A stretch of DNA of 64,000 bases from Candidatus Woesebacteria bacterium RBG_16_42_24 (lineage in GTDB: Bacteria > Patescibacteriota > Microgenomatia > UBA8517). The first letter of the stretch is position 1, and every line of letters begins with the position of its first letter. The stretch lies in contig MGFX01000007.1 in assembly GCA_001792115.1 (NCBI GenBank), positions 5,265 to 69,264 of the forward strand. Reading direction: 5' to 3'. Positions 2,753-47,615 of the stretch are shown here, piece by piece. The translations under genes and the position numbers were made by a program. The notes beneath the pieces are model-generated. The model was not told the DNA's origin. It was given only the letters and a program-made list of their open reading frames with translations, and did no database searches.

Positions 2753-3829
2753 TCACTTCGCAAGCTCGTTTTTGAAGTAATCGACCCAGGGAATCGGGGA
2801 GGGATCAATGCCGTAGAGCATTGCAAGATAAAAGCTGATATACGAACCGAGAACCAAAAGTTCATAAACCTGATCAATCTTCGTCTGTCCTTTAATTTTT
2901 AAAACGTCACACGCAACACCATTTTTTTCAGTAACATCTATTGTTATTGGATACCTCTTTTTAATCTCTGTAGGATAAAGCTCTGAATCTAAGAAAAGAA
3001 AATGTATAAAACTTTTAGCGCTAGCCGGATTTCTTAAACCTTCTAATAAGTGATGATTGAGCTCAGGAATATCAAAGAAAAGAGCAAATGCTTTAGAATT
3101 TTCGTTCAGCTGGTTCTTAAAGGCATGCGCAATTCCTACTAAATGTGAGCTCGCTATAAGAACTGGAATTTTGTCCTTAAGCTTGGCAGCGTAGAGTTTC
3201 GCTAAGTTATCTTTTATAGGAGTTCTAGCTCCAAATGCCGAAACCGCACTTTCCATATCTTTAACTATTTTTTCAATATCCACGTTGCTAACCTGTGTAA
3301 AACCCAGCTTGTTGAGCAACGCTAAATTGGCCGTTATTGAGTAGCCTAATGCCATTCTAGGCTGCCCCGAAGGGTTTTGTTTGGCTTCAAATATATAAGA
3401 ATTGATATTGTTTTCTTTAGCTAACTCGGCCAACTTTCCGCCGGTTGCTACGATAAAAACCCGGGCTCCTTTAGACATAGCGTCATGGGCCGCCGAAACC
3501 GTTTCCGCTGTATTTCCTGAATACGAAGATAAAATAACGAGAGTGTCGTCTTTTACATAATAAGGTAAGCTGTAGTCCGTTACGACTTCGATTGGCGCGA
3601 GATTAGACGATGATAACAGTGAATGGAGTATTCTCCCAGCAAGTGCGGAGCCTCCCATCCCAGAAACCACGATATGAGATACGCTACGATACTCATCGGG
3701 GAGAGCAATTGCAATTTCTGATACTTCTTGCCAAGCTTGTGCGACTTGCTTGGGTAGGGCTTCAATCGAACCTAAAACATTCCCTTTATCAAGTTCTGCT
3801 ATTTTTGACAGATCATCAAGGTTATCCAT
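2753..3829 (-). CDS. Bifunctional phosphoglucose/phosphomannose isomerase (archaeal-type, SIS domain)
   Basis: 358 aa; SIS-domain motifs (VVSGMGGSALAGRIL, ILSSYSGNTAETV); length and sequence typical of archaeal-type PGI/PMI. Confidence 0.65.
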   Translation of the reverse strand: MDNLDDLSKIAELDKGNVLGSIEALPKQVAQAWQEVSEIAIALPDEYRSVSHIVVSGMGGSALAGRILHSLLSSSNLAPIEVVTDYSLPYYVKDDTLVILSSYSGNTAETVSAAHDAMSKGARVFIVATGGKLAELAKENNINSYIFEAKQNPSGQPRMALGYSITANLALLNKLGFTQVSNVDIEKIVKDMESAVSAFGARTPIKDNLAKLYAAKLKDKIPVLIASSHLVGIAHAFKNQLNENSKAFALFFDIPELNHHLLEGLRNPASAKSFIHFLFLDSELYPTEIKKRYPITIDVTEKNGVACDVLKIKGQTKIDQVYELLVLGSYISFYLAMLYGIDPSPIPWVDYFKNELAK

Positions 3830-5174
3830 TTGGGGTAGAAATCAGCTCCTTCACAAAAGATATTCCATCCTCAAGAAGTTTCCCAGCTTTTTTCTCATCC
3901 TTACTTTCAGCAAAGACCCTAAATTCAGGAGCATTAGCGCTTGATCTAAAAAGAATCCACGTATTTTCGTCCACCCATATTTTGAGTCCATCAAGCTCTT
4001 CTACTCTTACACCTTTGAAATTCTTTTTTGCTTCGGATAGGATTTTATCCTTTAGTTCCCACTTATAATCGATCTTAGTTCTAAACATATAAAACTTGGG
4101 GAGTGTAGCCACAAGCTCTGAAAACTTACCCCCAAATTCGAATAAAAGATTCAGCAACTTCATAGTCATAGTTCCTCCGTCTCGCGTGTACATTATTTCA
4201 GCAGAGATTCCGCCACCGTTTGACTCAAACCCAAATACCGCCCCTACTTCTTTCATCTTGCCCACAACAAACGGGGAGCCAACTTTGGTTCTAATAACTT
4301 TTTTGCCTAAAGTATCGACAACGGATGAAGCGCTAATAGTTGTAACTACTGTATCTCCCGGGGCTTTTTTGGCAATTAAAGAGCATGAGTATTCCCCGGG
4401 GACAAATTCTCCCTTTTCGTTAACGAAAACCACTCTATCACCGTCGCCGTCAAAGGCTATTCCAAAATGTACGCCCTCTTTCTTAACAGTTTCTTTGAGT
4501 GTCTCGATCGCTGCTTTGTCATCGGTATCGGTGTCTCTTGCTATAAAAGGTTCTTGCGGGTCGCAATTGACCTCGATTACATTAAGACCCAGTCTTCGAA
4601 GTAAAGCCGGCATAACGACAGACTGAGAACCATTGGCGCAGTCAAGGCCTACACTCCAGCTCGGGAAGGGACCTACGGCTAAATTAAATAACATGTCGGA
4701 ATAAAGCTCTTGGGCTCTTGACTCTATTTTTACATTCACGGGAATGCTATCGGGTTTTCCTTTCCCCTTAATCTGGTAATAAATGGACTCTATCTCTTTC
4801 TGATCATCAACGGAAACTTCCTCGTCGTGGGCGTAAAATTTTACCCCATTTAGTTCTGGGGCTATATGGCTACCTGTAATCATTATCCCTGCAACAACCG
4901 GCGTGTTGATAATGAGCCAGTTCATAGAAGGAATGGGCGTAACTCCTTCGTCAAAAAGCTCAACGCCACCCGTTGAAAGTCCTGTTAGAAGTTCGTTTCT
5001 TATTCTGGGGCTCGACTCTCTGGGGTCCATACCTATAGCGATAGGCCCCAGACTTTCATGCCGCCTTAAGAATTCTATGAAAGTTCTGCCTATATCAAAA
5101 CAAAACTGTTTTGTAAAAAGGGTGTCTGCAGATCCTCTTATTCCGCTCGTGCCAAAAAGGGATTTTTCTACCAC
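3822..5174 (-). CDS. Phosphohexomutase (phosphomannomutase/phosphoglucosamine mutase family)
   Basis: GTSGIRG N-terminus, active-site TGSHIAPE-like loop (ITGSHIAPELNG) and metal-binding FDGDGDR motif. Confidence 0.75.
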   Translation of the reverse strand: MVEKSLFGTSGIRGSADTLFTKQFCFDIGRTFIEFLRRHESLGPIAIGMDPRESSPRIRNELLTGLSTGGVELFDEGVTPIPSMNWLIINTPVVAGIMITGSHIAPELNGVKFYAHDEEVSVDDQKEIESIYYQIKGKGKPDSIPVNVKIESRAQELYSDMLFNLAVGPFPSWSVGLDCANGSQSVVMPALLRRLGLNVIEVNCDPQEPFIARDTDTDDKAAIETLKETVKKEGVHFGIAFDGDGDRVVFVNEKGEFVPGEYSCSLIAKKAPGDTVVTTISASSVVDTLGKKVIRTKVGSPFVVGKMKEVGAVFGFESNGGGISAEIMYTRDGGTMTMKLLNLLFEFGGKFSELVATLPKFYMFRTKIDYKWELKDKILSEAKKNFKGVRVEELDGLKIWVDENTWILFRSSANAPEFRVFAESKDEKKAGKLLEDGISFVKELISTPNG

Positions 5175-5177
5175 AGC

Positions 5178-5843
5178 TTATTCTAGTTCGGTGGCAATTA
5201 GAAGGTCAAGGGAAGAAACGAGACTTTCTTTTGAAGTTTTTACGCTAACGTCTATCTCGGCTAACTTATTAATCAATCTGCTAAGTTTTTTTTGAGTAAA
5301 CTTTTCCGACTGACTCTCAAGTTTCAACATTCTCCATTCGGGGTAACCCAAGAAAACCCCGTCTATTTTAAGTAGGTATAGATCGCGAAGAAAGCGGGAA
5401 AGAAGATGCAGAATCAATTCTTCAGGTTGGCTACTTGCGATCTGGTGAAATAAATTCAATGCGTTTTTTACATTTCCTGGATAAAAAGAATCCAGAAATT
5501 TATAAATCAGATTGGGGAGCTTAAATTCTTCCAACGACGCGGTGTCCGGAAGAGCGCTTATTAGTGTTTTGGAGATAAACCCTGATTGAAAAAGTATTAT
5601 GTTTCCTTCCCTCCGCGAGAGCAACATCTCAAGTTCTTTTTTTTTCAATCTTCCGGCGTTATCGATTAACAAGACACTTTCTCCAAAAAGACCTCGATTA
5701 AGGGCTACGTCACTTATTGAGGAGGAAGCATCAAGTGAAATTTTCTGTATGTCGATACCTTTCTCTCGGGCTTGAGCAATTAAGACCGCAAGCCTCTTTC
5801 TTGAAGCAACTTCATTGTCGCCGTTTACGACAAAAACCTTCAT
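5178..5843 (-). CDS. holA: DNA polymerase III delta subunit-like (short HolA)
   Basis: 221 aa; N-terminal region with LFGESVLLI motif and helical C-terminal region resembling HolA. Shorter than the canonical protein. Confidence 0.45.
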   Translation of the reverse strand: MKVFVVNGDNEVASRKRLAVLIAQAREKGIDIQKISLDASSSISDVALNRGLFGESVLLIDNAGRLKKKELEMLLSRREGNIILFQSGFISKTLISALPDTASLEEFKLPNLIYKFLDSFYPGNVKNALNLFHQIASSQPEELILHLLSRFLRDLYLLKIDGVFLGYPEWRMLKLESQSEKFTQKKLSRLINKLAEIDVSVKTSKESLVSSLDLLIATELE

Positions 5844-6259
5844 TTAAGACTCCTAAAGTATTGTGCGACCAATACTTCCAATTTACGGTGAAAGTTTCTC
5901 GGTCCACGTCGGATATGCGGCGCTAAAGCGCCTGAAAAATTTCTGGGAATATGTGTGATTTCATGAAGAATAACTTTATCCTTCTCTACTTCGGGAAGTT
6001 TATCATATTTCTCTGAAATTACTTCGACTATATATGCCGCTTCAACTTGAAGTACACCTTGCCAAATTTTTCCCAGTCCCCAAATTCTGGCTATTGCGTG
6101 AGTCTTTGCATTAAACGACCGAAGGCAAAAAACTCTAGTGGGTTTTACCCAGGAGATATCAAGCGAAGTTACAAGGTGAGAAAGTCTTTTTTTTACGTCA
6201 GGAGCTACTTCCCAAACAATACCCCTGCCCCTTTTATGATTCTTTATATACTTCTGCAC
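5840..6259 (-). CDS. Small HExxH-motif putative zinc metallohydrolase (WLM/SprT/YgjP-like)
   Basis: 139 aa containing VILHEITHIPRNF. No further family assignment is possible by eye. Overlaps both neighbours (operon). Confidence 0.35.
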   Translation of the reverse strand: MQKYIKNHKRGRGIVWEVAPDVKKRLSHLVTSLDISWVKPTRVFCLRSFNAKTHAIARIWGLGKIWQGVLQVEAAYIVEVISEKYDKLPEVEKDKVILHEITHIPRNFSGALAPHIRRGPRNFHRKLEVLVAQYFRSLK

Positions 6260-10675: not shown

Positions 10676-13600
10676 CTATTCTACACGAGATGGCTCGCCG
10701 ACATCAAGGACATTCGAGATTTGTTTGGCTAAAGTTTCATCCCAGGATATCTTAAAGGGGAGCGTCAGTTTATGAGCGTTTCCAGCGAAAACTAGTACAA
10801 CTTCGTGTTCTCCCTGAGATGCCACCAGAAGCTTTTTCAAATCCCTTAACTTACTTAGGGAAATGTTCTTTGGCACTTTAATAAAAACTTGTTTTGTCCC
10901 TTCCCCAATAGTCTCAAGCGTATCAATTGCTTCAGCAATTAGAGAAGGATTATCCTCACGGCTGTCAACCTTACCGGTTACTAGAACGGGTTTGTAATCA
11001 ACCCAGTAATTTCTGGTTTTATCGAATATCCTTGGAAAAACGACAACTTCTATAGAACCCGTGTCGTCCTCAACCCGAACAAAAGCCATCTCCTGCGAGG
11101 TTCTTTTTGTAACTATTATTCTCACGTCAGAGACAACTCCGGCGACGCGTACGGTTTCACCAAAGGTTTGATTAGGAGAAATTTCGAAAATCTTGTGGGT
11201 TACTTCGTGAGACAAAGGTCCGATAAGTTCCCCGACGGGTCGGGCCGAAAGGGAAAAACCTAAAAGTTGTCTCTCGAGTGCCTGAAGCTCTTCGTCCGAA
11301 AACTCAGCTACGTTACCGAGAAGTCCCTTCACCTCAATTTTTTTGACAGCATTTTCTTCCCTTACATTAAATAAATCTTGCTGCCCGGATAGGCGCGCTG
11401 GCTTTGTAGTTTTTCCTCTAACTTCATCCAAAACCGAAAGAAGCGCTGCCCGGTTACCAAAAGCCTCAAGCCCACCAACCTTTATTAAGCTTTCTAATAC
11501 TTTTTTATTCACCCGCCGCGCGTCGACTCTACCGCAAAAGTCTGCCAGAGACGAAAAGGGCCTTTCCTTACGTGCGGAGAGAATTGCCTCTATTGCAGCA
11601 ACGCCCACATTTTTAATTGCCGATAGACCAAACCTAATGCCTCTTTTGGTTAAAGATTGCCTGTCAGAAGTTATACTAAAACCTACATTGCTTTCATTGA
11701 TATCAGGTGGTAAAACTTTTATTCTCATTCTTCGGCATTCGGATATGGCTGCTGAAATCTTCTCGCTATCTTGGCTTTCGGCAGTTAAAAGAGCGTTCAT
11801 GTATTCGACCGGAAAATTTGCTTTCATGAAAGCTGTTTGATATGCAACCATTCCATAGCTCGCTGCATGTGCTTTATTAAATCCGTATCCTGAAAATGGC
11901 TCTATCAATTTGAATAGCTCTTCTGCTCTTTCCCTCTTCATACCCTTTCTTACGGCTCCATTGATAAATTTCTCCTGTTGTTTCTTCATCTCGGCTGGAA
12001 TTTTCTTTCCTACCGCTTTTCTAAATTTGTCTGCCTCCTCCCAAGTGTAACCTGAAATTTTTATGGCGGTCATAAACACGTCATCCTGATAAACGATGAG
12101 TCCATACGATTTCCCTAAATACTCTTTCATTCTCGGGTCGAAAAAAATTACTTTCTTGGGATTATTTTTACGCTCAATATATTCAGGAATGACCGCCATT
12201 GGGCCAGGTCTATATAGAGCAACCATGACCATCAGATCTTCTACCCTTGTCGGCTTAAGTTCTCTTAGATACCTCGTCATACCCGAACCCGATAGTTGAA
12301 AGACCCCCATGGTTTCACCTCGTGACAACATTTCAAAAGTTTTCTTATCATTAACAGGAATTTGATGAAGATCGATACTCACCCCTCTAGTTTTTTTAAC
12401 TATCTCTATGGAGGCTCCTAAAATAGAAAGATTCCTAAGACCAAGCAAGTCAAATTTAAGAAGTCCTACTGCTTCACCAGGAGAAACATTAGGGTCCAAA
12501 GCGTCCATGTCGTATTGGGTGATTACTTTTTTTCCTTCCGGGTCAAGCTGAATAGGGGTAAATTCGGTAATATCTGAAGGTGCAATAACAAGTCCTGCCG
12601 CGTGCACCGAAACGTGGCGCGCGTTACCTTCTACTTGCTTAGCCAAATCAATTATTTTCTTAGTGTCGCCATCCGAATCATAAAGATTTTTTAGGTCGGG
12701 TGAGACGCTTAATGCCTTATCGATACTCATGGGAAATCCTTGAGATCCCAGAGGAATAAGTTTCGATATTCTATCTCCAGAGGAATAGGGGTACCCTAAA
12801 ACTCTTGCGGTGTCTCTTACTGCTGCCCTTGCCAACATTCTTCCAAATGTGCAGATTTGGGCTACCCTGTCGTGTCCGTATTTTTCTCCCATATAGTTGA
12901 TTATCTCCTCACGTCTGTCGTCGGCTATGTCGAAATCAATATCCGGCGGGGAAGGCCTCCAAGGAGTCAGGAATCTTTCGAATGGGAGGTCATAAGTTAA
13001 AGGGCTGATGTTTACAATTCCTAACGCATAGGCCACCAATGAGCCTGCCGTTGAACCCCTGGTATTTGTCACAATAGCCTGCTCTGCTGCCCACCTCGCC
13101 ATGTCGGAAACAATTAAAAAGTAGGTAGAATATCCCTTATTTTTAATCGTATCAAGCTCATTCTCGAGTCTAAGTAGCTCTTCTTTTTTTGGTTTACCTA
13201 CCTTTGAAGAAAGGCCCGCTCTCGCTCTAATCGCCAGTTCCTCTTCTGGCGTTTTACCTTCAGTGAGGGCGTATTTAGGAAAGTACCATCTAGTCAGTTC
13301 CAAGCTAACTTCGCATTTATCAGCTATTTTAACCGTATTATCCAGGGCCTCCGGCAAGTCTGAAAATAAGTCAGCCATCTCAGCTTGCGTCTTAATATAA
13401 AAGGATGGAGAGTCGATAAAGCGTAGGCGCTTTACCTCGCTTACATTTTTCCCTGTTGCTATGCAAACAAGTGAATCTTGGGCCATAGCGTCTTCCTTTT
13501 TGATGTAGTGGGCGTCGTTAGTGGCAACTATTGGAATCCCCAAGTTTCTACTTAACCGTTTAACTCCGGCAAAAATCGTCTTTTCATTCTTCGCCATACC

Positions 13601-14191
13601 AGATAACTGTTCCTTCAACTCGGGATTGTCCGTTTCGTTGATAAAGCTGTCATATTGGTGTCTCTGGACTTCCAGATAATAATTTTTTCCAAAAACATCC
13701 AGGAACCATTTTGAGATTTGCTTTGCTTTATTAAAATCTTCTGAAATTAAGGCTTGGGCGATTTCGCCTTGGGCACACGCTGAGGTAACTATCAAACCCT
13801 TTGAATACTTAGCCAGAGTTTCCCTGTCTACTCTGGGGCGATAGTAATAGCCTTCAATATGCGCGATGGAGCTCAATTTCATCAAGTTTTGATAACCTTC
13901 ATTATCTTTGGCCAGAAGTAGTAGATGATAATTCTGAAATTTCCCCCTTTCTGGACGCTCTTTAAGAGGAACATTTGTCGTATAGCCTTCCATTCCTATT
14001 ACGGGCTTTACTCCTTCTTTGATACACTTTTTGTAAAAATCTATAACACCGTACATCGCTCCATGGTCGGAAATTGCTATAGCTTCCATCTCCAACTCTT
14101 TTATATATGAAAGTAAATCGCTAATTTTTGAGAGTCCGTCAAGAAGTGAATACTCGGTATGGACGTGAAGGTGTACGAATTTCTTGGCCAT
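10676..14191 (-). CDS. dnaE: DNA polymerase III alpha subunit
   Basis: 1171 aa; PHP domain (FVHLHVHTEYSLLDG), polymerase core, and an OB-fold region near the C-terminus. Confidence 0.9.
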   Translation of the reverse strand: MAKKFVHLHVHTEYSLLDGLSKISDLLSYIKELEMEAIAISDHGAMYGVIDFYKKCIKEGVKPVIGMEGYTTNVPLKERPERGKFQNYHLLLLAKDNEGYQNLMKLSSIAHIEGYYYRPRVDRETLAKYSKGLIVTSACAQGEIAQALISEDFNKAKQISKWFLDVFGKNYYLEVQRHQYDSFINETDNPELKEQLSGMAKNEKTIFAGVKRLSRNLGIPIVATNDAHYIKKEDAMAQDSLVCIATGKNVSEVKRLRFIDSPSFYIKTQAEMADLFSDLPEALDNTVKIADKCEVSLELTRWYFPKYALTEGKTPEEELAIRARAGLSSKVGKPKKEELLRLENELDTIKNKGYSTYFLIVSDMARWAAEQAIVTNTRGSTAGSLVAYALGIVNISPLTYDLPFERFLTPWRPSPPDIDFDIADDRREEIINYMGEKYGHDRVAQICTFGRMLARAAVRDTARVLGYPYSSGDRISKLIPLGSQGFPMSIDKALSVSPDLKNLYDSDGDTKKIIDLAKQVEGNARHVSVHAAGLVIAPSDITEFTPIQLDPEGKKVITQYDMDALDPNVSPGEAVGLLKFDLLGLRNLSILGASIEIVKKTRGVSIDLHQIPVNDKKTFEMLSRGETMGVFQLSGSGMTRYLRELKPTRVEDLMVMVALYRPGPMAVIPEYIERKNNPKKVIFFDPRMKEYLGKSYGLIVYQDDVFMTAIKISGYTWEEADKFRKAVGKKIPAEMKKQQEKFINGAVRKGMKRERAEELFKLIEPFSGYGFNKAHAASYGMVAYQTAFMKANFPVEYMNALLTAESQDSEKISAAISECRRMRIKVLPPDINESNVGFSITSDRQSLTKRGIRFGLSAIKNVGVAAIEAILSARKERPFSSLADFCGRVDARRVNKKVLESLIKVGGLEAFGNRAALLSVLDEVRGKTTKPARLSGQQDLFNVREENAVKKIEVKGLLGNVAEFSDEELQALERQLLGFSLSARPVGELIGPLSHEVTHKIFEISPNQTFGETVRVAGVVSDVRIIVTKRTSQEMAFVRVEDDTGSIEVVVFPRIFDKTRNYWVDYKPVLVTGKVDSREDNPSLIAEAIDTLETIGEGTKQVFIKVPKNISLSKLRDLKKLLVASQGEHEVVLVFAGNAHKLTLPFKISWDETLAKQISNVLDVGEPSRVE

Positions 14192-23334: not shown

Positions 23335-23405
23335 GCGGGATTAGTTGAGCGGCTCAATACTACCTTCCCAAGGTAGGGAGACGGGTTCGACTCCCGTATC
23401 CCGCT
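23335..23405 (+). tRNA. tRNA-Gly (anticodon CCC)
   Basis: Acceptor GCGGGAT/ATCCCGC, anticodon stem CTACC/GGTAG with loop TTCCCAA, T-arm ACGGG-TTCGACT-CCCGT. Confidence 0.8.
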
Positions 23406-23465
23406 CACAAGCGGAATCCGCAGCCGCGAGTTCGTGCGGGTTAGGGTTTGGGGGGAAGAGTAGGA

Positions 23466-24857
23466 CTAGAGCTTTGTAACTTGCCCCTCGATTGCATCAA
23501 CAAGTACTTTATCTCCATTCTTTAGTAGGAAAGTTGCATTGTTGGTTCCGACCACACAAGGAATTCCAAATTCTCTCGCAATAATTGCAGCGTGGGAAGT
23601 AATCCCACCAGAATCTGTAACAATTGCGGCGGCCTTAGTCATTGCAACAACATATGCTGGCTGGGTCTGAAATGCAACAAGTATTTCTCCCTTTTTAAAT
23701 TCTTTTAAGTCATCGTAGACTTTAATTATTCTTACTCTTCCCTCAACTTTTCCTCGACAAGCAGCAGTTCCTTTGATTTCTTGAGTTTTTGGTCGCTTAC
23801 GTTTTATTAATTTTTGGATTTTTTTAAATTGTTTTTGGTCTTTGAAGTAATAGAAATGAAGTTTGCCTTTCTCTGGCCAGACCAGCCTCAATTGGTTATT
23901 GTACCTTTCTTCATATTTCCTTATCTTTTTTGGGTTTTCGCTTACTTCAATGAGCTCTTCAAAAGTCAAGTTTTGGATAATTCCTTCGACATAGTACATA
24001 CCCATCTTTTTCTTAAGATAATTTTTAAATAGGAAATCAAGTTCGACTTGCTTGTCCGCGGCCCGATTATCGTACGAGTTAATCTTAACAAAAGTATTTA
24101 TTAGGTTTTTATCCTTGGCTGAAACTTTATCAATAAACATGAGTTCTTTATTTTGTTCTTTCTCCTTAACTAAGCCTTTTAGCTGATCTAGAAAGCTTTG
24201 TGGACCCCAGGGCTTGAGTCCTCTTTCGCTTGTGCTTATCCAGCCGTAATTTTCTGTGTGTCTTACCAATAATATTTTGATTTTTGGATCCAATTCTTCA
24301 AAGTTAAAATCAACTTTCTCAAACTCTTTTTGGAAATTTTTGTAAATTTCTAAAAGGTTATTATTGCTTTCCGTTAATTTAGTTTCTGAAGAATTTTTAA
24401 GAATGTAATTTATAATATCTGCTTCTGGAACTGATTCCTCTTTTGAAATTTCGGAAACCCCATGAGGGATAATCTCGTCAAATACCAGTGAAACAGAGCT
24501 CATAAGAAGAGATAAATTTTCCTGTATTTTAATGTACTTTTTAGAATCAAATTTTTGGTCATTAAGTTCAAAAATTAGTTTATCAGCAGATACACAGATA
24601 TCTTCAAAATCTTTTAAGAGTTTTTTAGTCTTTTGGCTGTCTTTGAAAAAATCTCTAAATCTTTCTAGGATCTCAGCTTCTTTATAAAAATCCAGGTACT
24701 CATCCCCGAAGACAGGCACCTTGTATCCTAGATAAATTGGATATTTGCCAAAAGACATTGTCTTGGCAAAAAGAAGGTGAATATACCAATCCCATTGCCA
24801 AACGCCTCCCCTGGTCCAATAGCCTTTTTTGACTTTTCTAATAAAACTTTCAAGCAC
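23466..24857 (-). CDS. Orphan PEP-utilizer swivel (phosphohistidine) domain protein with an uncharacterised lysine-rich N-terminal ~360 aa
   Basis: The C-terminal ~100 aa (RVRIIKVYDDLKEFKKGEILVAFQTQPAYVVAMTKAAAIVTDSGGITSHAAIIAREFGIPCVVG) matches the mobile His domain of PEP synthase and PPDK. No ATP-grasp GGKGANL motif and no PEP-binding TIM barrel. Markedly AT-rich. Confidence 0.55.
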   Translation of the reverse strand: MLESFIRKVKKGYWTRGGVWQWDWYIHLLFAKTMSFGKYPIYLGYKVPVFGDEYLDFYKEAEILERFRDFFKDSQKTKKLLKDFEDICVSADKLIFELNDQKFDSKKYIKIQENLSLLMSSVSLVFDEIIPHGVSEISKEESVPEADIINYILKNSSETKLTESNNNLLEIYKNFQKEFEKVDFNFEELDPKIKILLVRHTENYGWISTSERGLKPWGPQSFLDQLKGLVKEKEQNKELMFIDKVSAKDKNLINTFVKINSYDNRAADKQVELDFLFKNYLKKKMGMYYVEGIIQNLTFEELIEVSENPKKIRKYEERYNNQLRLVWPEKGKLHFYYFKDQKQFKKIQKLIKRKRPKTQEIKGTAACRGKVEGRVRIIKVYDDLKEFKKGEILVAFQTQPAYVVAMTKAAAIVTDSGGITSHAAIIAREFGIPCVVGTNNATFLLKNGDKVLVDAIEGQVTKL

Positions 24858-24909
24858 AGTATGATTATACAGTGAGAATGTGGAATTTGGGTGGAGTTTA
24901 GCCTCTAAA

Positions 24910-25119
24910 GGGAGTAAAATGTGTCTTTAATTGTCCGCGCACGGGTTGGGCTTGCCCTAAAAATTGCGCATTCAATTTTCAGGGTGAAGGGCAAGGACAA
25001 TTTGTTCCTGTCTTAACGCGCGCAAAAAATAGCGGAGGCGAGGCTGTTAGGCCGAGCCGGAGCTGCGACAATTAGGGTGTGCGACAAAAGTTAGTTCGAG
25101 CTTTTTCAAAAACGAGCTC
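24910..25119. repeat. Intergenic repeat element, copy 1 (~210 bp)
   Basis: Near-identical blocks shared with 29666..29929: gggagt...cgcacggg, gaagggcaa.gacaatttgttcctgtcttaacgcgcgc, caaaaaat, agcggaggcgaggc, ggccgagccgg, ttcgaRctttttcaaaaacgagctc. Ends 5 nt before the GTG start of the 25125 gene. Confidence 0.7.
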
Positions 25120-25124
25120 CATAA

Positions 25125-25847
25125 GTGACAAAAATAAACATTAATGACAAAAAAGTTACAATAATGGATAATGGTTTTATGAATAAATACGTGGTGTTGC
25201 TTCGTAGTAACATATTTAAAATCACGACGCTTGTTTTGTTTCTGATTGTTCTTGTTGTCAGCTTTGTTAACATCAGCTTCCAGCAAAAACTTAAGGATAC
25301 AACCCAAAAATTGGCATTTAAAAGCGAGGAATATGAGCTGTGCATAGATGACAAAGCAAAAATAATAGAAGAATCTAAGCAAACTTATTCTCCTCAGGAA
25401 TTTAAGATTTCTTCTCCTTTGTTTGAAGGAAAAGAAATGACCGTAAAAATGTTGGGTTATAAAGGCACTGAGATAAAAGAGATGACAATTGATCTTCCGC
25501 AAAGTGATCAGCTGGGTCATCCGATTAATATTAAAGTCTGGGATTATATTAACGTTCCTAATCCAAAAATGGCAAGATTCGACCAGTATTACAATGCCTT
25601 TCCACTTTGGGCAGAAACAGTAAATGATAATCTGACAAATTATTTTACATATAAGACGACTAGTGGATTTTCTATGAATCGCGCTTGTGGAGAATTAACC
25701 ATTTCGAGAAGCATCACCAGCATTCACAGCATTTATGTATTGATATCAGGCTATCAATGTACTGGAATATTTCCAGGAAAAGAGGAAGAAACAATCAGGG
25801 AGTCAACAAAGTTTCTAGAGGAAGTAGCAGACACTATTAATTTTTAG
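25125..25847 (+). CDS. Hypothetical membrane-anchored protein
   Basis: 240 aa; TM helix at ~30-50 then a soluble domain without recognisable motifs. Very AT-rich. GTG start with no obvious RBS. The antisense ORFs in this region look like low-complexity artefacts. Confidence 0.4.
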   Translation: MTKININDKKVTIMDNGFMNKYVVLLRSNIFKITTLVLFLIVLVVSFVNISFQQKLKDTTQKLAFKSEEYELCIDDKAKIIEESKQTYSPQEFKISSPLFEGKEMTVKMLGYKGTEIKEMTIDLPQSDQLGHPINIKVWDYINVPNPKMARFDQYYNAFPLWAETVNDNLTNYFTYKTTSGFSMNRACGELTISRSITSIHSIYVLISGYQCTGIFPGKEEETIRESTKFLEEVADTINF

Positions 25848-25942
25848 CTTTACTCTAGCGTGGCAAAATCATCAACACCTAAGAGTTCTTTCAAGGCCAA
25901 AAGCTGAACACCCAACTCTGGTGTGATATACTTTGATAGGCT

Positions 25943-25966
25943 TGTCCTGAGTGAAATCGAAGGGTT
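25943..25966. repeat. Short repeat fragment (gtcctgagtgaaatcgaagggtt) related to motifs inside repeat copy 2
   Basis: Matches the inverted copy ccttcgatttcactcagga at 29794..29812 and the direct copy gtcctgagcgaagtcgagggg at ~29874..29894. Confidence 0.5.
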
Positions 25967-26022
25967 CGAGCCCAGTACGGTATCCAGCTCAAAACGTGAG
26001 TGTACGTGCGTAAACCAGGATT

Positions 26023-26793
26023 ATGCAGATAGATTTCTTCGAGGAGTTCCCCAACGATGATAGTTTATCTAAGTTGCGCATTATTAAATTTCGAACAAAT
26101 CTCTATGTCGCTGCTAAAAGTGTAAAAGAATTCTTAGTTTTAAAAACTAAAATTAAGAAGTTTTATAGAAATGTAGCCGAGGTAATTTACTGGCCTATTC
26201 TAGAGGTGAATGAAGGTTATTGGCTATCAGCATTCTCCAAAACATTGGCAATTAAGCGAATTCTAAACGAGCTTAAAAATACAAACGAGAAGTTCTCAGT
26301 ACTTTGGGATGCAGAACTGCCAATATTAGCTAAAGAACTTTTCGTGACTCAATTACCAAATTTCTTAAGAAATCGGAAAATTATAAAAAAAGTAACATTG
26401 CATCAAGACTCAAATCATCCTCTTATAATAACGGCATTTCCCAAAAGCGGAATAAATAAATTCTTCTCGAGTCTGGCGTGCACTTATTTTTCTTCTGGAA
26501 GTTTTCCCTATATCGATATGCTCTATACCTCTTTACTGAGGGTAAAAGATAAGTCTAGGTATGTACGTAGTGCCATAAAAAGAAATAAAAATAAATTTCA
26601 GGAATACTCTGTTGCACTTGGACTTATTGGGCGAGGGGTAGAAGATTACTCAACACCACTAATTTCTCCTCTTGGCTTAAAAATGGATTTAGGTATCGCA
26701 CAGAAAGAAGGGGTAAAAAATGTAGTACTTTATCGCCTAGGAGGCTTAAATAAAAATTATCTCGGAGTGCTTGAGGAATTTGTCAGTAAATAG
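26023..26793 (+). CDS. Hypothetical protein
   Basis: 256 aa, AT-rich, no recognisable motif. Confidence 0.4.
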   Translation: MQIDFFEEFPNDDSLSKLRIIKFRTNLYVAAKSVKEFLVLKTKIKKFYRNVAEVIYWPILEVNEGYWLSAFSKTLAIKRILNELKNTNEKFSVLWDAELPILAKELFVTQLPNFLRNRKIIKKVTLHQDSNHPLIITAFPKSGINKFFSSLACTYFSSGSFPYIDMLYTSLLRVKDKSRYVRSAIKRNKNKFQEYSVALGLIGRGVEDYSTPLISPLGLKMDLGIAQKEGVKNVVLYRLGGLNKNYLGVLEEFVSK

Positions 26794-26909
26794 CCCACAA
26801 AAAGTGTTAATTTATTAAGTTGTACTTTATTATGTATTTTTTAGTTCTAAAGCATAAACTAAATCAGGTAATAGGCCGTCTTGATAGAATAATCTGATAA
26901 AATCTAACT

Positions 26910-27386
26910 ATGATTAAAGATTTGAACAAACTAGCCAGGAAAATTATTCAGGAAAACCAATATGTAACAATTGCCACATCAGACAAAAATGGCAATCCTT
27001 GGATTTCTGCAGTGGTTTATGCATATGACAAAGACTGGAATTTTTATTTCATTTCAATCCCTTCATCTAAACACTGCCAGAACATAAAAAATAATAAAAG
27101 GGTTGTGGTTGCAATTTTCGATTCACATCAGCTTTTGGGTGAAGGAGTCGGTTTACAAATAGAGGGTGAAGCGATTATGGTGGATATTAAAGACACGCCT
27201 AAAGTAGCTACAATTTATTTTGGAAGAAAATACCCATATGGCAAGGTGGCGCATAATGCCGGTCAGTATATCAAAAGATTTATGAAGAAAGGAGAACTAT
27301 ACAGATTTTATAAAATTCGACAGACAACGTTTTGGATGAACGACCCAAATAGCAAAATTGATTTAAGAGTTGAAGTAAAATTATGA
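26910..27386 (+). CDS. Pyridoxamine 5'-phosphate oxidase-like FMN-binding split-barrel protein
   Basis: YVTIATSDKNGNPWISAVVY...NKRVVVAIFDSHQ pattern typical of the PNPOx/general-stress-protein-26 family. Paralogous to the 28102..28578 product. Confidence 0.55.
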   Translation: MIKDLNKLARKIIQENQYVTIATSDKNGNPWISAVVYAYDKDWNFYFISIPSSKHCQNIKNNKRVVVAIFDSHQLLGEGVGLQIEGEAIMVDIKDTPKVATIYFGRKYPYGKVAHNAGQYIKRFMKKGELYRFYKIRQTTFWMNDPNSKIDLRVEVKL

Positions 27387-28105
27387 ATATGGATTTTCAG
27401 AATAAAGTAGCAGTTATCACAGGAGCAAGTAGAGGACTTGGCAAAGAAATTGCGATACTTTTGGCTGAGCAAAAAGCCAAACTTGCACTGGTTTCCCGAT
27501 CAGAAAATGAGCTAAATAAAGTCAAAGAAGAAATTGGCCCCAATGCGGAATATTTTGTCTGCGATATTTCAAACTCAAAAGCAGTTGAGAAAACCATCGT
27601 TGAGATTCATCAAAAGTTCGGCAAAATAGACATTCTCATCAATAATGCCGGTATTTGGTTTGAGGGGCTAGCAGAAAAACACCCTCCAGAAAAGGTTAAA
27701 GAATTATTCGACGTAATCACGTTGGGAACTATTTATGTAACAACAAGCGTGCTACCAATTCTCAAAAAACAGGCTGAAGGGCAAATATTAAATGTCGTTT
27801 CTGTCGCAGGGATAGAAACTCCCGGAGCTGAAATGGGTCCTTACTCGCCGTATACTGCCGCAAAATATGCTGTAACCGGGTTCACGAAATCATTAGAGGA
27901 AGAACTCAAAGGGACAAAAATAAAAGTAATGGGAATTTATCCAGGCGGAATGAATACACCTCTATTCAAGAAAGCTGGTTTTGATTATACAGAAAACGAA
28001 AATTGGATGATGGATAAGAAAGATGTCGCCAAAATTATTTTATTCATGCTCTCACAACCAAAAGACGTAATTATTGACCACTTAGTTGTAAGAAAATTTA
28101 GTTAA
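27383..28105 (+). CDS. Short-chain dehydrogenase/reductase (SDR)
   Basis: TGASRGLG cofactor-binding motif, NNAG, and a YxxxK active-site region (YTAAKYAV). Confidence 0.8.
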   Translation: MNMDFQNKVAVITGASRGLGKEIAILLAEQKAKLALVSRSENELNKVKEEIGPNAEYFVCDISNSKAVEKTIVEIHQKFGKIDILINNAGIWFEGLAEKHPPEKVKELFDVITLGTIYVTTSVLPILKKQAEGQILNVVSVAGIETPGAEMGPYSPYTAAKYAVTGFTKSLEEELKGTKIKVMGIYPGGMNTPLFKKAGFDYTENENWMMDKKDVAKIILFMLSQPKDVIIDHLVVRKFS

Positions 28106-28578
28106 GCCTTCCAAATTCCGTATTCTTCAGGTGAATAAAGTTCTTTGTTGAAAAACTTTAAATACTTTGGGGTAATCTTCCAAACGTTAGTGTCAGCAAA
28201 TTTTATAACCTCCTTTATCGTTATCTCCTTTTCTACTCCAGGGTTTTGCTTATGCCAAAGTGCTAATGCCTTAGTTAGATTGATAATTCCTTTAACCTTC
28301 TCGATTGTGCCGGATCCTTGGAGCCCCTTCTTGGGTTCAAAAATCTTTTGGTGAGAATCGAAAATATTAAATGCGATTTTGTTGTTCTTAGTCATATCTT
28401 TGCCGTGAATTGAGTTCGGGTCGGTAACAATGTACAGATTCATATCTTTGTCAATTCCATAATAAACAGTGCAAACCCAAGGGCCTTTTGAGGATTGAGT
28501 AGCCAACGTCATGATTCCCTTCTTTTTAAGAAACTTGAAAATATCTTGCCCGATTAGAACGTTTGTTCTTTTACCCAT
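28102..28578 (-). CDS. Pyridoxamine 5'-phosphate oxidase-like FMN-binding protein (paralog of the 26910..27386 gene)
   Basis: IMTLATQSSKGPWVCTVYYGIDKDMNLYIVTDPNSIHGKDMTKNNKIAFNIFDSHQ aligns with the 26910 product. Start placed at the internal Met to avoid a 90-nt overlap with the pyrD-like gene. Confidence 0.5.
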   Translation of the reverse strand: MGKRTNVLIGQDIFKFLKKKGIMTLATQSSKGPWVCTVYYGIDKDMNLYIVTDPNSIHGKDMTKNNKIAFNIFDSHQKIFEPKKGLQGSGTIEKVKGIINLTKALALWHKQNPGVEKEITIKEVIKFADTNVWKITPKYLKFFNKELYSPEEYGIWKA

Positions 28579-28599
28579 CAAGGCTATAATATCACTGGA

Positions 28600-29664
28600 G
28601 TGAATAAATTCAAAATTGAACACTGGGTCTATAAAAATATTCTCAGGCCATATTTGTTTGCTATTGATTCCGAAAAAATCCACGACCAAATGATTAGGTT
28701 TGGGGAACTCACGGAAAATGCAGGCTGGTTTTTAGAAGCCCAATACTCATATAAAAGCGATAGGTTAAAAAGGTCGTTTTTAGATGTAGATTTTGAGAAT
28801 CCAGTGGGGCTTGCTGCCGGGTTTGACTACGATGGACATTTAGCCAAAACAATGAAACATCTCGGGTTTGGATTTAATACCATTGGCACAGTTACGGCTA
28901 AGCCTTACGGAGGTAACCAGAAGCCTAGGTTGCTAAGACTTGTGAAGTCTCGAGCGATTCTTGTAAACAAAGGCTTCAAGTCAGAAGGTGCGACCAAAGT
29001 GGCAAAAAGGCTAGACGCAAAAAATCTTCAAGGACACACTGTCGGAATCAGTGTCGGAAGCTCAAACATTCCAGAAGTGAACACAATTGACAAAGCGATC
29101 AATGACTATGTCTTTACTTTCAATGTTTTTAAAAACAAGCCTTACGTTAAATATTTTGAACTTAATATCAGTTGTCCTAACACAGCGATGACTGAGTCAT
29201 TTACTACACCACAAAATTTTGAAAAGTTGGTATCCGCCGTAAGTAAGCTGAATTTGAAGCAACCAATCTTTGTGAAAATGCCAAACGAAATAGTCAGTAA
29301 AGAAGCAGAAAGCTTAGTAAGAATTGGTTTGAGGTATAGAATAAATGGCTATATTTTCTCTAACCTTGTTAAGGATCGGGGAAATAAATACTTTGTAAAA
29401 AGCGAGATCGAAAAGATGGAAGGCTACAAAGGTAATTTTAGCGGGAAACCCTGCACGGAGAACTCTAACAAACTTCTGGCGCATGTTAAGACAAAGTTCG
29501 GTAATAAGGTTGTCCTGATTGGCCTTGGCGGAATTTTCAATGCGAAAGACGCAATCCAGATGTTTGAAAGTGGGGCCGATTTAGTACAACTTATAACAGG
29601 AATGATTTTTGAAGGACCTCAAATAGCAGGAGAGATAAATTATCAACTTTCTATTGGTAAGTAG
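28600..29664 (+). CDS. pyrD: Dihydroorotate dehydrogenase-like, class 2 (quinone-type) architecture
   Basis: N-terminal extension YKNILRPYLFAIDSEKIHD, ENPVGLAAGFDYDG, GFGFNTIGTVTAKPYGGNQKPRL, NISCPNT, and C-terminal LGGIFNAKDA...GADLVQLITGMIFEGPQI all match class-2 PyrD blocks. Confidence 0.7.
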   Translation: MNKFKIEHWVYKNILRPYLFAIDSEKIHDQMIRFGELTENAGWFLEAQYSYKSDRLKRSFLDVDFENPVGLAAGFDYDGHLAKTMKHLGFGFNTIGTVTAKPYGGNQKPRLLRLVKSRAILVNKGFKSEGATKVAKRLDAKNLQGHTVGISVGSSNIPEVNTIDKAINDYVFTFNVFKNKPYVKYFELNISCPNTAMTESFTTPQNFEKLVSAVSKLNLKQPIFVKMPNEIVSKEAESLVRIGLRYRINGYIFSNLVKDRGNKYFVKSEIEKMEGYKGNFSGKPCTENSNKLLAHVKTKFGNKVVLIGLGGIFNAKDAIQMFESGADLVQLITGMIFEGPQIAGEINYQLSIGK

Positions 29665-29665
29665 A

Positions 29666-29929
29666 GGGAGTGTGTTTAATATATTTTACGTTGGCACGCA
29701 CGGGCAGGGCTTGCACTAAAAAATTTCCGGAGGAATTTTTCAGCGTGAAGGGCAAAGACAATTTGTTCCTGTCTTAACGCGCGCGCAAAAAATCCTTCGA
29801 TTTCACTCAGGATAAATAGCGGAGGCGAGGCCACATTCGGCTTAGCTCAGTGTAAACTTGGCCGAGCCGGCGAAGTCCTGAGCGAAGTCGAGGGGAGCGA
29901 AGCGGTTCGAACTTTTTCAAAAACGAGCT
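29666..29929. repeat. Intergenic repeat element, copy 2 (~265 bp; carries extra internal segments relative to copy 1)
   Basis: Shares the blocks listed for copy 1. It also carries an internal imperfect inverted pair (ccttcgatttcactcagga ... tcctgagcgaagtcgagg) separated by ~60 nt. Confidence 0.7.
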
Positions 29930-29958
29930 CAAGTTATTAGTTGTGCTAAGCTAGGATT

Positions 29959-30678
29959 ATGAAGTTTAAGCTTGTTGATAAGAAGGCAGAGGCGAAGGGG
30001 ACGAAGTCTTTCTTTTGGGAACCTGACAAAAGGTTTGAATTCTTACCCGGACAGTATCTTTATTACACTCTTCCAAAGCTTGAGTTTCCGGATCCAAGAG
30101 GCGCTACGCGGCACTTTACTATTTCAGCCTCACCTACGGAATCTCCCCCCGTCAGGTTGACTACTAGGATTCGTGAGGAGTCTGGTTACAAAAAAACTTT
30201 AGATTCGCTACCAATTGGCAGTTTTGTTGAAGCAGAAGGCCCTGACGGAACTTTTATTTTAGATACTGGCGATGCGGGACCCCATATCTTTATTGCGGGA
30301 GGAATCGGCATTACTCCTTTCAGAAGCATGATTAAGTTTGTCCTTGACAAAAATCTGGGTTACGAGATGCATTTAATTTATTCAAACTCTCTTCCCGAGG
30401 AAATTGCTTTTAGAGAAGAGTTTGACCATTACGCTGACCTTATTCCCAATTTTAAGATTACCTCAACTGTGACTAAGAAAGACGAAATAAAAACGCCCTG
30501 GGTTGGACTGACCGGGAGAATTGATGTCAACTTAATTTCGAAGGTTGCAAGCTCTTACCAAAATCCCACATTTTGGGTTTGCGGTCCACCTCCGATGGTC
30601 GATGCGATAGAGAAAGCTCTTTCCGAGCTCAAAATCTCTTCGAGCCAAATAAGGACAGAAAAATTCACGGGTTATTAG
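29959..30678 (+). CDS. FAD/NAD(P)-binding ferredoxin-NADP reductase-like oxidoreductase
   Basis: RHFTIS (RxYS flavin motif), GGIGITPF, and a C-terminal VCGPPPM NAD-binding motif. No Cys cluster for a 2Fe-2S centre. Confidence 0.7.
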   Translation: MKFKLVDKKAEAKGTKSFFWEPDKRFEFLPGQYLYYTLPKLEFPDPRGATRHFTISASPTESPPVRLTTRIREESGYKKTLDSLPIGSFVEAEGPDGTFILDTGDAGPHIFIAGGIGITPFRSMIKFVLDKNLGYEMHLIYSNSLPEEIAFREEFDHYADLIPNFKITSTVTKKDEIKTPWVGLTGRIDVNLISKVASSYQNPTFWVCGPPPMVDAIEKALSELKISSSQIRTEKFTGY

Positions 30679-46602: not shown

Positions 46603-46640
46603 CCTAGTGGATTTTGCGAAGGAGAGCGGAAAATTTCGTT
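46603..46640. repeat. Tail-module repeat copy A (within the Nudix 3' end; encodes ...FSALLRKIH-stop)
   Basis: Minus-strand aaattttccgctctccttcgcaaaatccactagg shares a ccttcgcaaaatccactagg core with the ftsZ 3' end (copy C) and tccgctct/ccttcgcaaaatccac with copy B. Confidence 0.7.
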
Positions 46641-47149: not shown

Positions 47150-47190
47150 ATTTTGTGGATTTTGCGAAGGAAGAGCCGGGATCTATTTGA
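47150..47190. repeat. Tail-module repeat copy B (just after the stop of the 47183..47572 gene; frameshifted and degenerate)
   Basis: Minus-strand ttcaaatagatcccggctcttccttcgcaaaatccacaaaattga matches atcccggccttccttcgcaaaatccac of ftsZ except for a 1-nt indel and loss of the terminal cactag. Confidence 0.7.
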
Positions 47191-47574: not shown

Positions 47575-47615
47575 CCTAGTGGATTTTGCGAAGGAAGGCC
47601 GGGATTTCAAATTTC
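47575..47615. repeat. Tail-module repeat copy C (ftsZ 3' end; encodes the conserved FtsZ C-terminal peptide [10 protein letters not shown]-stop)
   Basis: Minus-strand gaaatcccggccttccttcgcaaaatccactagg. IPAFLRK is the canonical FtsZ C-terminal partner-binding peptide. Confidence 0.75.

Follow-up and report, generated by a model that had tools for sequence, protein, structure and literature searches.

Modular, hairpin-rich intergenic repeats in a laterally exchanged gene island of a Candidatus Woesebacteria genome

Two intergenic sequences in Candidatus Woesebacteria bacterium RBG_16_42_24, a member of the Candidate Phyla Radiation (CPR) from the Rifle aquifer, are copies of the same structured element. 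They lie 4.8 kb apart, in direct orientation, in a 64,000-nt stretch of contig MGFX01000007.1 (positions 5,265 to 69,264; "the window"). A preliminary description of the window had proposed such a pair, and alignments and counts of shared blocks place both where it put them. The elements are part of a small repeat family, modular and rich in hairpins, within a laterally exchanged gene island, with further members in related genomes. The family is best read as a new one, located at cassette junctions. With modest confidence, it is taken to be a lineage-specific set of mosaic intergenic repeats of the REP/BIME/BOX kind, with putative structural or recombinational roles.

The window was compared with single contigs from related genomes, the motif comparison covering about 190 kb. 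Four of these (L022, L024, L025, and L028) were found by synteny, through homologs (56–61% identity) of a 240-amino acid (aa) protein encoded next to one copy. A fifth, L029, is from Woesebacteria GWA1_41_8 and was reached through a 90%-identical homolog of the PEP-utilizers-domain protein on the other side of that copy; L030 has the same sequence over the element region. A covariance model, R1, was built from the two window copies only.

Copies in the window

Copies 1 and 2 align end to end, with a mean column identity of 76% in a pairwise alignment. They have exact blocks of 28, 19, and 18 nt in common, plus several of 8–11 nt, and every shared block quoted in the preliminary description is present. 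Each of the long blocks occurs exactly twice in the 64 kb, where shuffled sequences lead to an expectation of 0–0.12. The element begins with AGGGAGT on one side and ends with GAGCTC / GGTTCGAGC on the other. The copies and their surroundings are as follows:

23335–23406, tRNA-Gly(CCC), at the left edge of the island
23407–29930, low-GC island between this tRNA and an FNR-like gene, delimited from the GC profile
24910–25119, copy 1, between divergent PEP-utilizers (minus strand) and hypothetical 240-aa (plus strand) genes; 228.7 bits with R1; orthologous to L029 9769–9928
25943–25990, partial copy, consisting of a 19-nt unit (25945–25963) followed by an H0-type hairpin (25964–25990), upstream of a 256-aa gene at 26023; homologous to L025 ~2900–3000
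29666–29930, copy 2, between the stop codon of a dihydroorotate dehydrogenase (DHODH) gene (29664) and the FNR-like gene (ATG at 29959), at the right edge of the island; 291.5 bits with R1; orthologous to L029 5857–6053

The window thus has two full copies and one partial copy. The partial one had been listed as a 24-nt fragment at 25943; it exists, but it is longer than that, continuing into a third terminal hairpin. Motif scans and R1 located no further copies or element motifs in the other 58 kb. The extra length of copy 2 is accounted for by a 27-nt loop extension in its central hairpin and by two 19-nt units. Ten near-identical assemblies of the same population have identical copies, the sole apparent deletion being a run of N.

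The gene island

The GC content of the island is 0.29–0.38, versus 0.42–0.49 outside it. Its genes encode the PEP-utilizers-domain protein, two hypothetical proteins, two PNPOx-like proteins, an SDR protein, and DHODH. In three relatives (L012, L014, and L016) the local order is LysM, tRNA-Gly, a small open reading frame (ORF), and FNR, with neither island nor element, although their FNR proteins are 86, 79, and 66% identical, respectively, to that of the window. It follows that 23407–29930 is an island that was inserted, and that FNR genes do not have the element as a conserved leader.

A corresponding island is found in L029 (4815–15340). Its proteins are 88–94% identical to those of the window island, while the flanking core proteins are just 49–76% identical, which argues for lateral exchange of the island between Woesebacteria lineages. 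The two versions differ in gene content all the same. The window has the 240-aa gene, with an H0 hairpin on either side; L029 does not, and there a single H0 is joined to the same downstream sequence. An RHH/PIN toxin-antitoxin pair and several small ORFs are found in the L029 version only, and the SDR gene has been swapped for one whose product is just 31% identical. The repeats sit at the cassette junctions of the island. Between copies, genes lie in both orientations over as much as 3.7 kb. Among the island ORFs of the window and of L029, none was recognized as an integrase, a transposase (Y1 included), or a recombinase of the tyrosine or serine type.

Two further intergenic repeats were seen within the L029 island. 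A 45-nt segment is repeated at 4850–4894 and 13364–13408 (89% identity), and a 55-nt one, containing half an H0 hairpin, at 5821–5875 and 14137–14191 (84% identity). The latter points to a partial fourth copy, and to cassette flanks that are shared.

Module structure

Eight copies from five lineages could be compared, and in all of them the module order is the same: in plus orientation, M1, an A-run linker, M2, M3, and H0. Modules have been gained, lost, or replaced between copies. As the preliminary description had noticed, parts of the element also occur by themselves; it is built from modules that are found singly as well. Those of the two full copies, and the three 19-nt units, are located as follows:

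24936–25024, minus strand, M1 of copy 1, with a (GC)n helix P1 (24936–43 with 25017–24), Pb (24955–24984), and Pa (24996–25012), from RNAalifold
25031–25064, M2 of copy 1, hairpin GGC GA GGC / GCC GA GCC (25037–25058) with an outer AGC/GCT stem
25094–25119, H0 of copy 1, imperfect palindrome GTTCGAGC-N12-GAGCTC, from the alignment and a regular-expression scan
25945–25963, plus strand, third 19-nt unit, in the partial copy
29695–29786, minus strand, M1 of copy 2, with P1, Pa, and Pb
29794–29812, minus strand, 19-nt unit, left arm, in the U/A-run linker of copy 2
29824–29868, M2 of copy 2, hairpin with the 27-nt loop extension
29876–29894, plus strand, variant 19-nt unit, right arm, copy 2
29905–29930, H0 of copy 2, GTTCGAAC-N12-GAGCTC, from the same alignment and scan

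The modules are short, GC-rich, and imperfectly palindromic, the insertable 19-nt units among them. On the plus strand the pattern of M2 is GGC GA GGC(C), a loop, and (G)GCC GA GCC; all eight copies have the same 2x2 internal loop, while the terminal loop varies from 3 to 27 nt and the inner stem also varies in length. An A-run (25024–25030) precedes M2 of copy 1, so that on the minus strand M2 is followed by a U-run. H0, at the end of the element, is an imperfect palindrome with the pattern GGTTC-N3/4-N12-AGCTC, which a regular-expression scan found in island copies only (the window and L029, three each; L025, one). M3 is a variable linker between M2 and H0.

M1 is absent, truncated, or replaced in five of the copies. 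L029a has lost Pb, L029b has two unrelated hairpins in place of the M1 interior, and the entire domain is missing from L029c, L028, and L022a. The best-folding domain is the one that is lost, with its interior deleted or replaced in copies at orthologous positions. The Pb hairpin recurs in L024, together with a CCCUUYAC motif (E = 4.8e-4).

An imperfect inverted pair had been reported in copy 2. It is real, and consists of two 19-nt units (TCCTGAGYGAARTCGARGG; TCCTGAG..CGAAGGA) bracketing the central hairpin M2. The unit has three matches in the window, compared to 0.09 expected, and occurs singly in L022 as well (3264–3282). Neither copy 1 nor any L029 copy has one at the position of the left arm, which is an insertion in the linker relative to them.

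Copies in related genomes

The possibility of copies beyond the first two had been raised, and they exist: R1 identified three in L029 (E = 2e-24, 4e-16, and 1e-12), with diverged ones in other lineages. Elsewhere, the model itself gave a local match in L024 (the Pb match mentioned above) and a weak one in L028 (E = 0.055). The copies are:

L029a, ortholog of copy 1, flanked by the 256-aa gene and PEP-utilizers
L029b, ortholog of copy 2, beside the DHODH 3' end
L029c, at a new, non-orthologous site between two small ORFs
L024, 2990–3170, diverged, in opposite orientation relative to the homologous gene
L028, 1148–1262, shorter, between the 240-aa homolog and tRNA-Gly
L022, partial copies and the single 19-nt unit
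L025, an H0 hairpin upstream of the 240-aa homolog

The H0, M2, and unit motifs were limited to island copies throughout the ~190 kb. Copy numbers are small, with two plus a fragment in the 64 kb of the window and three to four in L029, all in the island.

Different parts of the element have diverged to different extents. Between orthologous copies, H0 and M3 are 64% identical and the M2-P1-Pa part 90%, with third codon positions of the island genes at 83–93%. Copies within L029 are 82–94% alike in these parts. That copies are more similar within a genome than between orthologous positions argues for module replacement or gene conversion within genomes.

Two short contigs, L026 and L027, end inside the repeat (2855–2923 and 1405–1473, respectively; ...CGTGTCGGCTCGAACTTCTTTTT), just past the terminator hairpin of the homologous gene. 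Such breaks would be expected if the sequence is present in multiple copies in those genomes.

Searches of wider collections returned little. Apart from tRNAs, nothing was matched in Rfam by the whole window at gathering thresholds, by the two copies at E ≤ 10, or by L022, L024, and L025. Gapped patterns (GTGAAGGGCAA ... CTTAACGCG) had one chance match each, in a high-GC genome, in the GTDB species genomes and JGI metagenomes. Their anchors lie in parts of the dispensable M1 that even the L029 copies lack, so these scans are a poor guide to the spread of the family, which they will underestimate. Viral-contig scans yielded nothing except one GC-rich chance match, and phage and plasmid collections searched with BLASTN produced no genuine match. 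Within the window, the end of copy 1 resembles 2748–2776 in inverse orientation (29 nt, 79%); these are the last codons of a minus-strand gene (...YFKNELAK*), and the similarity was judged to be due to chance.

Several specific identities were considered for the sequence and dropped. A tRNA-like reading of GGTTCGAGC fails because the stems do not pair, an RNase P-like reading of AGGGUGAAGGGC has no support from Rfam, and the motifs of a hammerhead-like core are absent. Coding potential was dismissed because the copies differ by indels whose lengths are not divisible by three. M2 with its U-run was also considered as an intrinsic terminator, but the stem is weak and set apart from the U-run.

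Folding and covariation

The two copies had been described as having no clean compensatory changes between them, but some are present. One hairpin has UUG/CAA at its top in copy 1, which in copy 2 is replaced by UUCC/GGAA, and a C-G at its base becomes G.U (RNAalifold). When other copies are included, the Pb tops compensate among UUG/CAA, UUCC/GGAA, and CGC/GCG. In M2, the outer pair is G-C in the window and L029 clade and A-U in L024 and L028, and the inner stem forms a series from C-G through U.G to U-A. Given these substitutions and the variation in loop length, M2 is a genuine hairpin with a conserved fold. The L024 and L028 copies were compared by eye, with no second covariance model, because MAFFT misplaces the 5' arm of M2 in both.

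Evidence on which strand is folded is split. The model structure includes 20 G.U cells and five A.C cells when read on the minus strand, and several substitutions leave pairs intact there but not on the plus strand: in Pa of L029a, A-U becomes G.U, and in both Pb and H0, C-G becomes G.U. The plus strand is favored by the always-unpaired GA/GA positions, which could form tandem sheared G.A pairs there; M2 and the 19-nt unit both have such positions, as does the window H0 when it is read in the L029 register. RNAalifold energies are nearly the same for the two strands (−36.6 vs. −34.9 and −23.1 vs. −22.0 kcal/mol).

Relation to flanking genes

Both full copies end just upstream of plus-strand genes, and the preliminary description suggested that they could be a shared regulatory leader or riboswitch. 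Putative promoters were identified by consensus match for the two genes flanking copy 1, both outside the element:

24864–24871, minus strand, putative extended −10 box TGTATAAT of the PEP-utilizers gene, conserved in L029
25135–25162, plus strand, putative promoter TAAACA-16-TACAAT of the 240-aa gene

The second has its −10 box at 25157–25162, in a context (AAAAGTkAyAwTAATGG) common to L022, L025, and L028. From these sequences, the promoters of both genes are likely to lie between the element and the genes. Copy 1 does end 5 nt before a GTG at 25125, as had been described, but the gene probably starts further downstream, with TACAAT lying after that GTG. More generally, the longest ORFs of the PEP-utilizers and 240-aa genes have GTG starts (24857 and 25125) with conserved −10-like boxes at or after them. 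These starts probably overcall the genes, which are 430 and 222 aa in other assemblies.

A cis-regulatory 5' leader or riboswitch of the 240-aa and FNR-like genes would account for several features: a structured, GC-rich sequence in an AT-rich genome, positioned upstream of genes, with a co-oriented gene or tRNA after H0 (in plus orientation) in seven of eight copies. It would not readily account for others. The FNR orthologs in L012, L014, and L016 have no element upstream, and a motif scan found none at the PEP-utilizers ortholog of L031 (49% identical), located 78 nt after groEL. The L029 ortholog of copy 2 precedes the RHH/PIN operon, not FNR. The genes following copies are unrelated, and do not point to any one gene family: they encode a membrane protein (the 240-aa one), a reductase, an RHH antitoxin, small ORFs, and tRNA-Gly. 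Orientation relative to neighboring genes differs between genomes, the conserved −10 box of the 240-aa gene would place transcription starts downstream of the element, the best-folding core is dispensable, and no Rfam model matches. With orthologs lacking the element, promoters apparently outside it, and orientation varying, a role as a leader or riboswitch is extremely unlikely.

The sequence just upstream of the FNR-like gene (29931–29958) resembles that upstream of the 256-aa gene (25991–26022; TGCTAAGCTAGGATTATG vs. TGCGTAAACCAGGATTATG), so the repeat homology runs on into the ribosome-binding region. The FNR upstream region of the window is unlike that of the FNR orthologs.

Comparison with known repeat families

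The BOX elements of Streptococcus pneumoniae are intergenic, with ~100 copies across the chromosome, and are made up of boxA, a repeated boxB, and boxC modules. The family described here is likewise non-coding and composed of a few short modules that are present, absent, or repeated but always in fixed order, with predicted stable hairpins and a location near gene starts. The two have no sequence similarity, however, and here there are two to three copies in one island, in a CPR host with a small genome.

The REP, BIME, and REPIN sequences of enterobacteria and pseudomonads are GC-rich, imperfect palindromes of 20–40 nt, occurring singly, as inverted doublets, or in mosaics (PMC3337134, PMC3733652). 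The 19-nt unit is comparable, being single in the partial copy (25945) and in L022 (3264) and an inverted doublet in copy 2, and the copies show intragenomic homogenization. In contrast, these units have no GTAG/CGTC head, there is no RAYT (Y1 transposase) among the island ORFs, and copy numbers are very low; compared to REPs, the modules are also longer and more varied. The Correia/NEMIS elements of Neisseria, which are MITEs (miniature inverted-repeat transposable elements), offer a further parallel as non-coding intergenic repeats of 100–260 bp near promoters that, by analogy, may be able to alter expression of their neighbors. Here, though, there are no terminal inverted repeats (TIRs) or target-site duplications (TSDs), and no sign of recent insertion.

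The assignment to a REP/BIME/BOX-like mosaic family is based on the turnover of modules, the patchwork nature of the island, and the lack of TIRs, TSDs, and a recombinase. If it is correct, copies would spread and be homogenized by recombination or gene conversion among themselves, not by a transposase, and could act as patches of homology where cassettes are gained and lost. They would then not only be located at cassette junctions but probably help to create them. Any effects on expression might come from hairpins in DNA or in read-through RNA, by insulation or stabilization of transcript ends, and would not involve ligand sensing.

Several observations weigh against this assignment. There are just two to three copies per island, and none elsewhere in the DNA examined. 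Classical REP, BIME, and BOX families are genome-wide, with tens to hundreds of copies, and the low copy number and restriction to an island are unlike them. A functional RNA would also fit the pair statistics: a five-copy alignment pairs 93% of cells, with 12 double-change pairs, and none of 500 shuffles equaled it. The alignment was fitted to the structure of the model and so is biased toward it, and the copies are related, so these numbers are taken as support for the hairpins and not as proof of a functional RNA. Folding energies are mildly better than those of shuffled sequences (z = −1.5 to −3.5 for whole copies, −0.6 to −1.3 for M2). The invariant, non-complementary 2x2 loop of M2, and the long retention of M2 and H0 in lineages whose neighboring protein is just 56–61% identical, hint at a specific partner, whether protein or RNA, which the label of a generic repeat would leave unexplained.

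Alternative explanations

One other possibility is that the copies are genes for small non-coding RNAs (sRNAs) on the minus strand, starting near H0, continuing through M3, and ending at M2 and the U-run. Such an RNA would be ~105 nt, as in L029c, a minimal copy; M1 would be an optional addition at its 3' end, and transcription would be divergent from the adjacent cassette gene. The excess of G.U over A.C cells on that strand is consistent with this, as are the substitutions in Pa of L029a, Pb, and H0 that pair on it alone; M2 is followed by a terminator-like UAUUUUUU in most copies, and in six of eight the H0 end abuts the 5' end of an oppositely pointing gene. Upstream of H0, however, promoter prediction gave no sigma-70-like promoter on the minus strand, and the sequences there are unrelated between copies. 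The M2 stem is weak, interrupted by internal loops, and separated from the U-run by 7 nt, and a terminator scan missed it; the near-equal strand energies do not single out the minus strand, and the plus strand would be the better one for folding the conserved GA/GA mismatches. On balance sRNA genes seem unlikely. Alternatively, the copies might be attC-like recombination sites, folded as single-stranded DNA and used by an unrecognized recombinase to insert and excise cassettes beside tRNA-Gly. The island is hypervariable even though its genes are ~90% identical (the H0-bracketed gene, the RHH/PIN cassette, and the swapped SDR gene), and the attC sites of sedentary chromosomal integrons (e.g., the Vibrio VCRs) are also species-specific structured repeats at cassette boundaries, associated with toxin-antitoxin cassettes. 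They too have structure conserved above sequence, strand-asymmetric folding, and conserved unpaired bases, and in chromosomal attC arrays likeness within a genome exceeds that between orthologs, as it does here. On the other hand, the R''/R' core sites (RYYYAAC ... GTTRRRY) are absent from the element ends, and a string of three to five separate short hairpins takes the place of a single hairpin of 57–141 nt. Several genes separate the repeats, pointing both ways over distances of up to 3.7 kb, and neither island encodes an integrase or other recombinase. Recombination sites of this type are quite improbable. A more novel reading would be a previously undescribed CPR cassette-exchange system beside tRNA-Gly, in an island moving between Woesebacteria lineages, with junction elements that fold as single strands, have conserved unpaired GA/GA or UC/UC, and mark where genes are inserted, deleted, and swapped, or else divergent sRNAs that accompany each cassette; this is considered rather unlikely.

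A non-autonomous transposable element (a MITE, or REPIN-like), mobilized in trans by a transposase encoded elsewhere, would explain the several dispersed copies in both orientations across genomes and the two assemblies that break within the repeat. The 19-nt unit could also be accommodated, since it looks like an insertion in the copy 2 linker, flanks M2 as an inverted doublet, in the manner of the REPs of a REPIN, and is found alone in the window and in L022. The ends tell against it. In copies 1 and 2 the two ends (AGGGAGT... and ...GAGCTC) do not match each other in inverse orientation, so no TIRs are evident, and the flanks share no direct repeat beyond 3–4 nt that could be a TSD; the ends are ragged, with homology on the gene side extending into promoter and ribosome-binding sequence. 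In addition, copies at orthologous positions have not moved in two genomes, no transposase is nearby, the unit does not have a GTAG or CGTC head, and no match turned up in phage and plasmid collections. "MITE-like", as the preliminary description had it, is apt only loosely; all copies are in one island, and a mobile element of this kind is distinctly improbable. Lastly, the copies could be neutral relics of a local duplication of promoter-upstream intergenic DNA, with no role of their own. The direct orientation and 4.8 kb spacing of the window copies would suit this, as would homology reaching the ribosome-binding region, where TGCKTAARCYAGGATTATG is common to the FNR and 256-aa upstream sequences, and the 90% identity of M2-P1-Pa, a divergence not clearly lower than that of third codon positions. 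But M2, H0, and the linker are recognizable in L024, L028, and L022, where neutral DNA should no longer be, given that the adjacent protein is merely 56–61% identical. There are also the compensatory changes in M2 and Pb and the third L029 copy at a non-orthologous site, and a neutral relic is very improbable.

Significance for CPR genomes

To our knowledge, CPR/Patescibacteria, with their small streamlined genomes, have not been noted for dispersed structured repeats, and a literature search found no description of such elements in these genomes. The case presented here ties a repeat family to a hypervariable, laterally exchanged island whose genes are gained and lost at the modules. Should the repeats favor cassette turnover, this would help to explain how reduced genomes maintain a flexible gene pool, and it is the cassette-junction idea that would make the finding notable. 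If they are passive mosaic repeats only, their value is smaller: they would break assemblies, mimic riboswitch-like leaders, and need to be masked in screens for regulatory RNAs.

Other repeated sequences

A second structured motif was seen upstream of different genes in three lineages (L022 3790–3880, L024 3250–3330, and L028 215–300), with the sequence AAAUGGYRCAACCGGUGGAcUCA ... GUCCGAuUGCgCCAUuAAAAAAGAGAUUC. It has compensatory changes of its own (AUGGUGCAU/AUGCACCAU vs. AUGGUGCAA/UUGCGCCAU, and GAAUCGUC/GACGAUUC vs. GAAUCUC/GAGAUUC). It has no Rfam match and is absent from the window.

Well away from the island, a 21-nt repeat (CCTAGTGGATTTTGCGAAGGA) occurs at the 3' ends of three tandem minus-strand genes (46603–46623, 47151–47171, and 47575–47595) and also at 6134–6154. 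The three tandem genes are probably paralogs sharing a C-terminal peptide.

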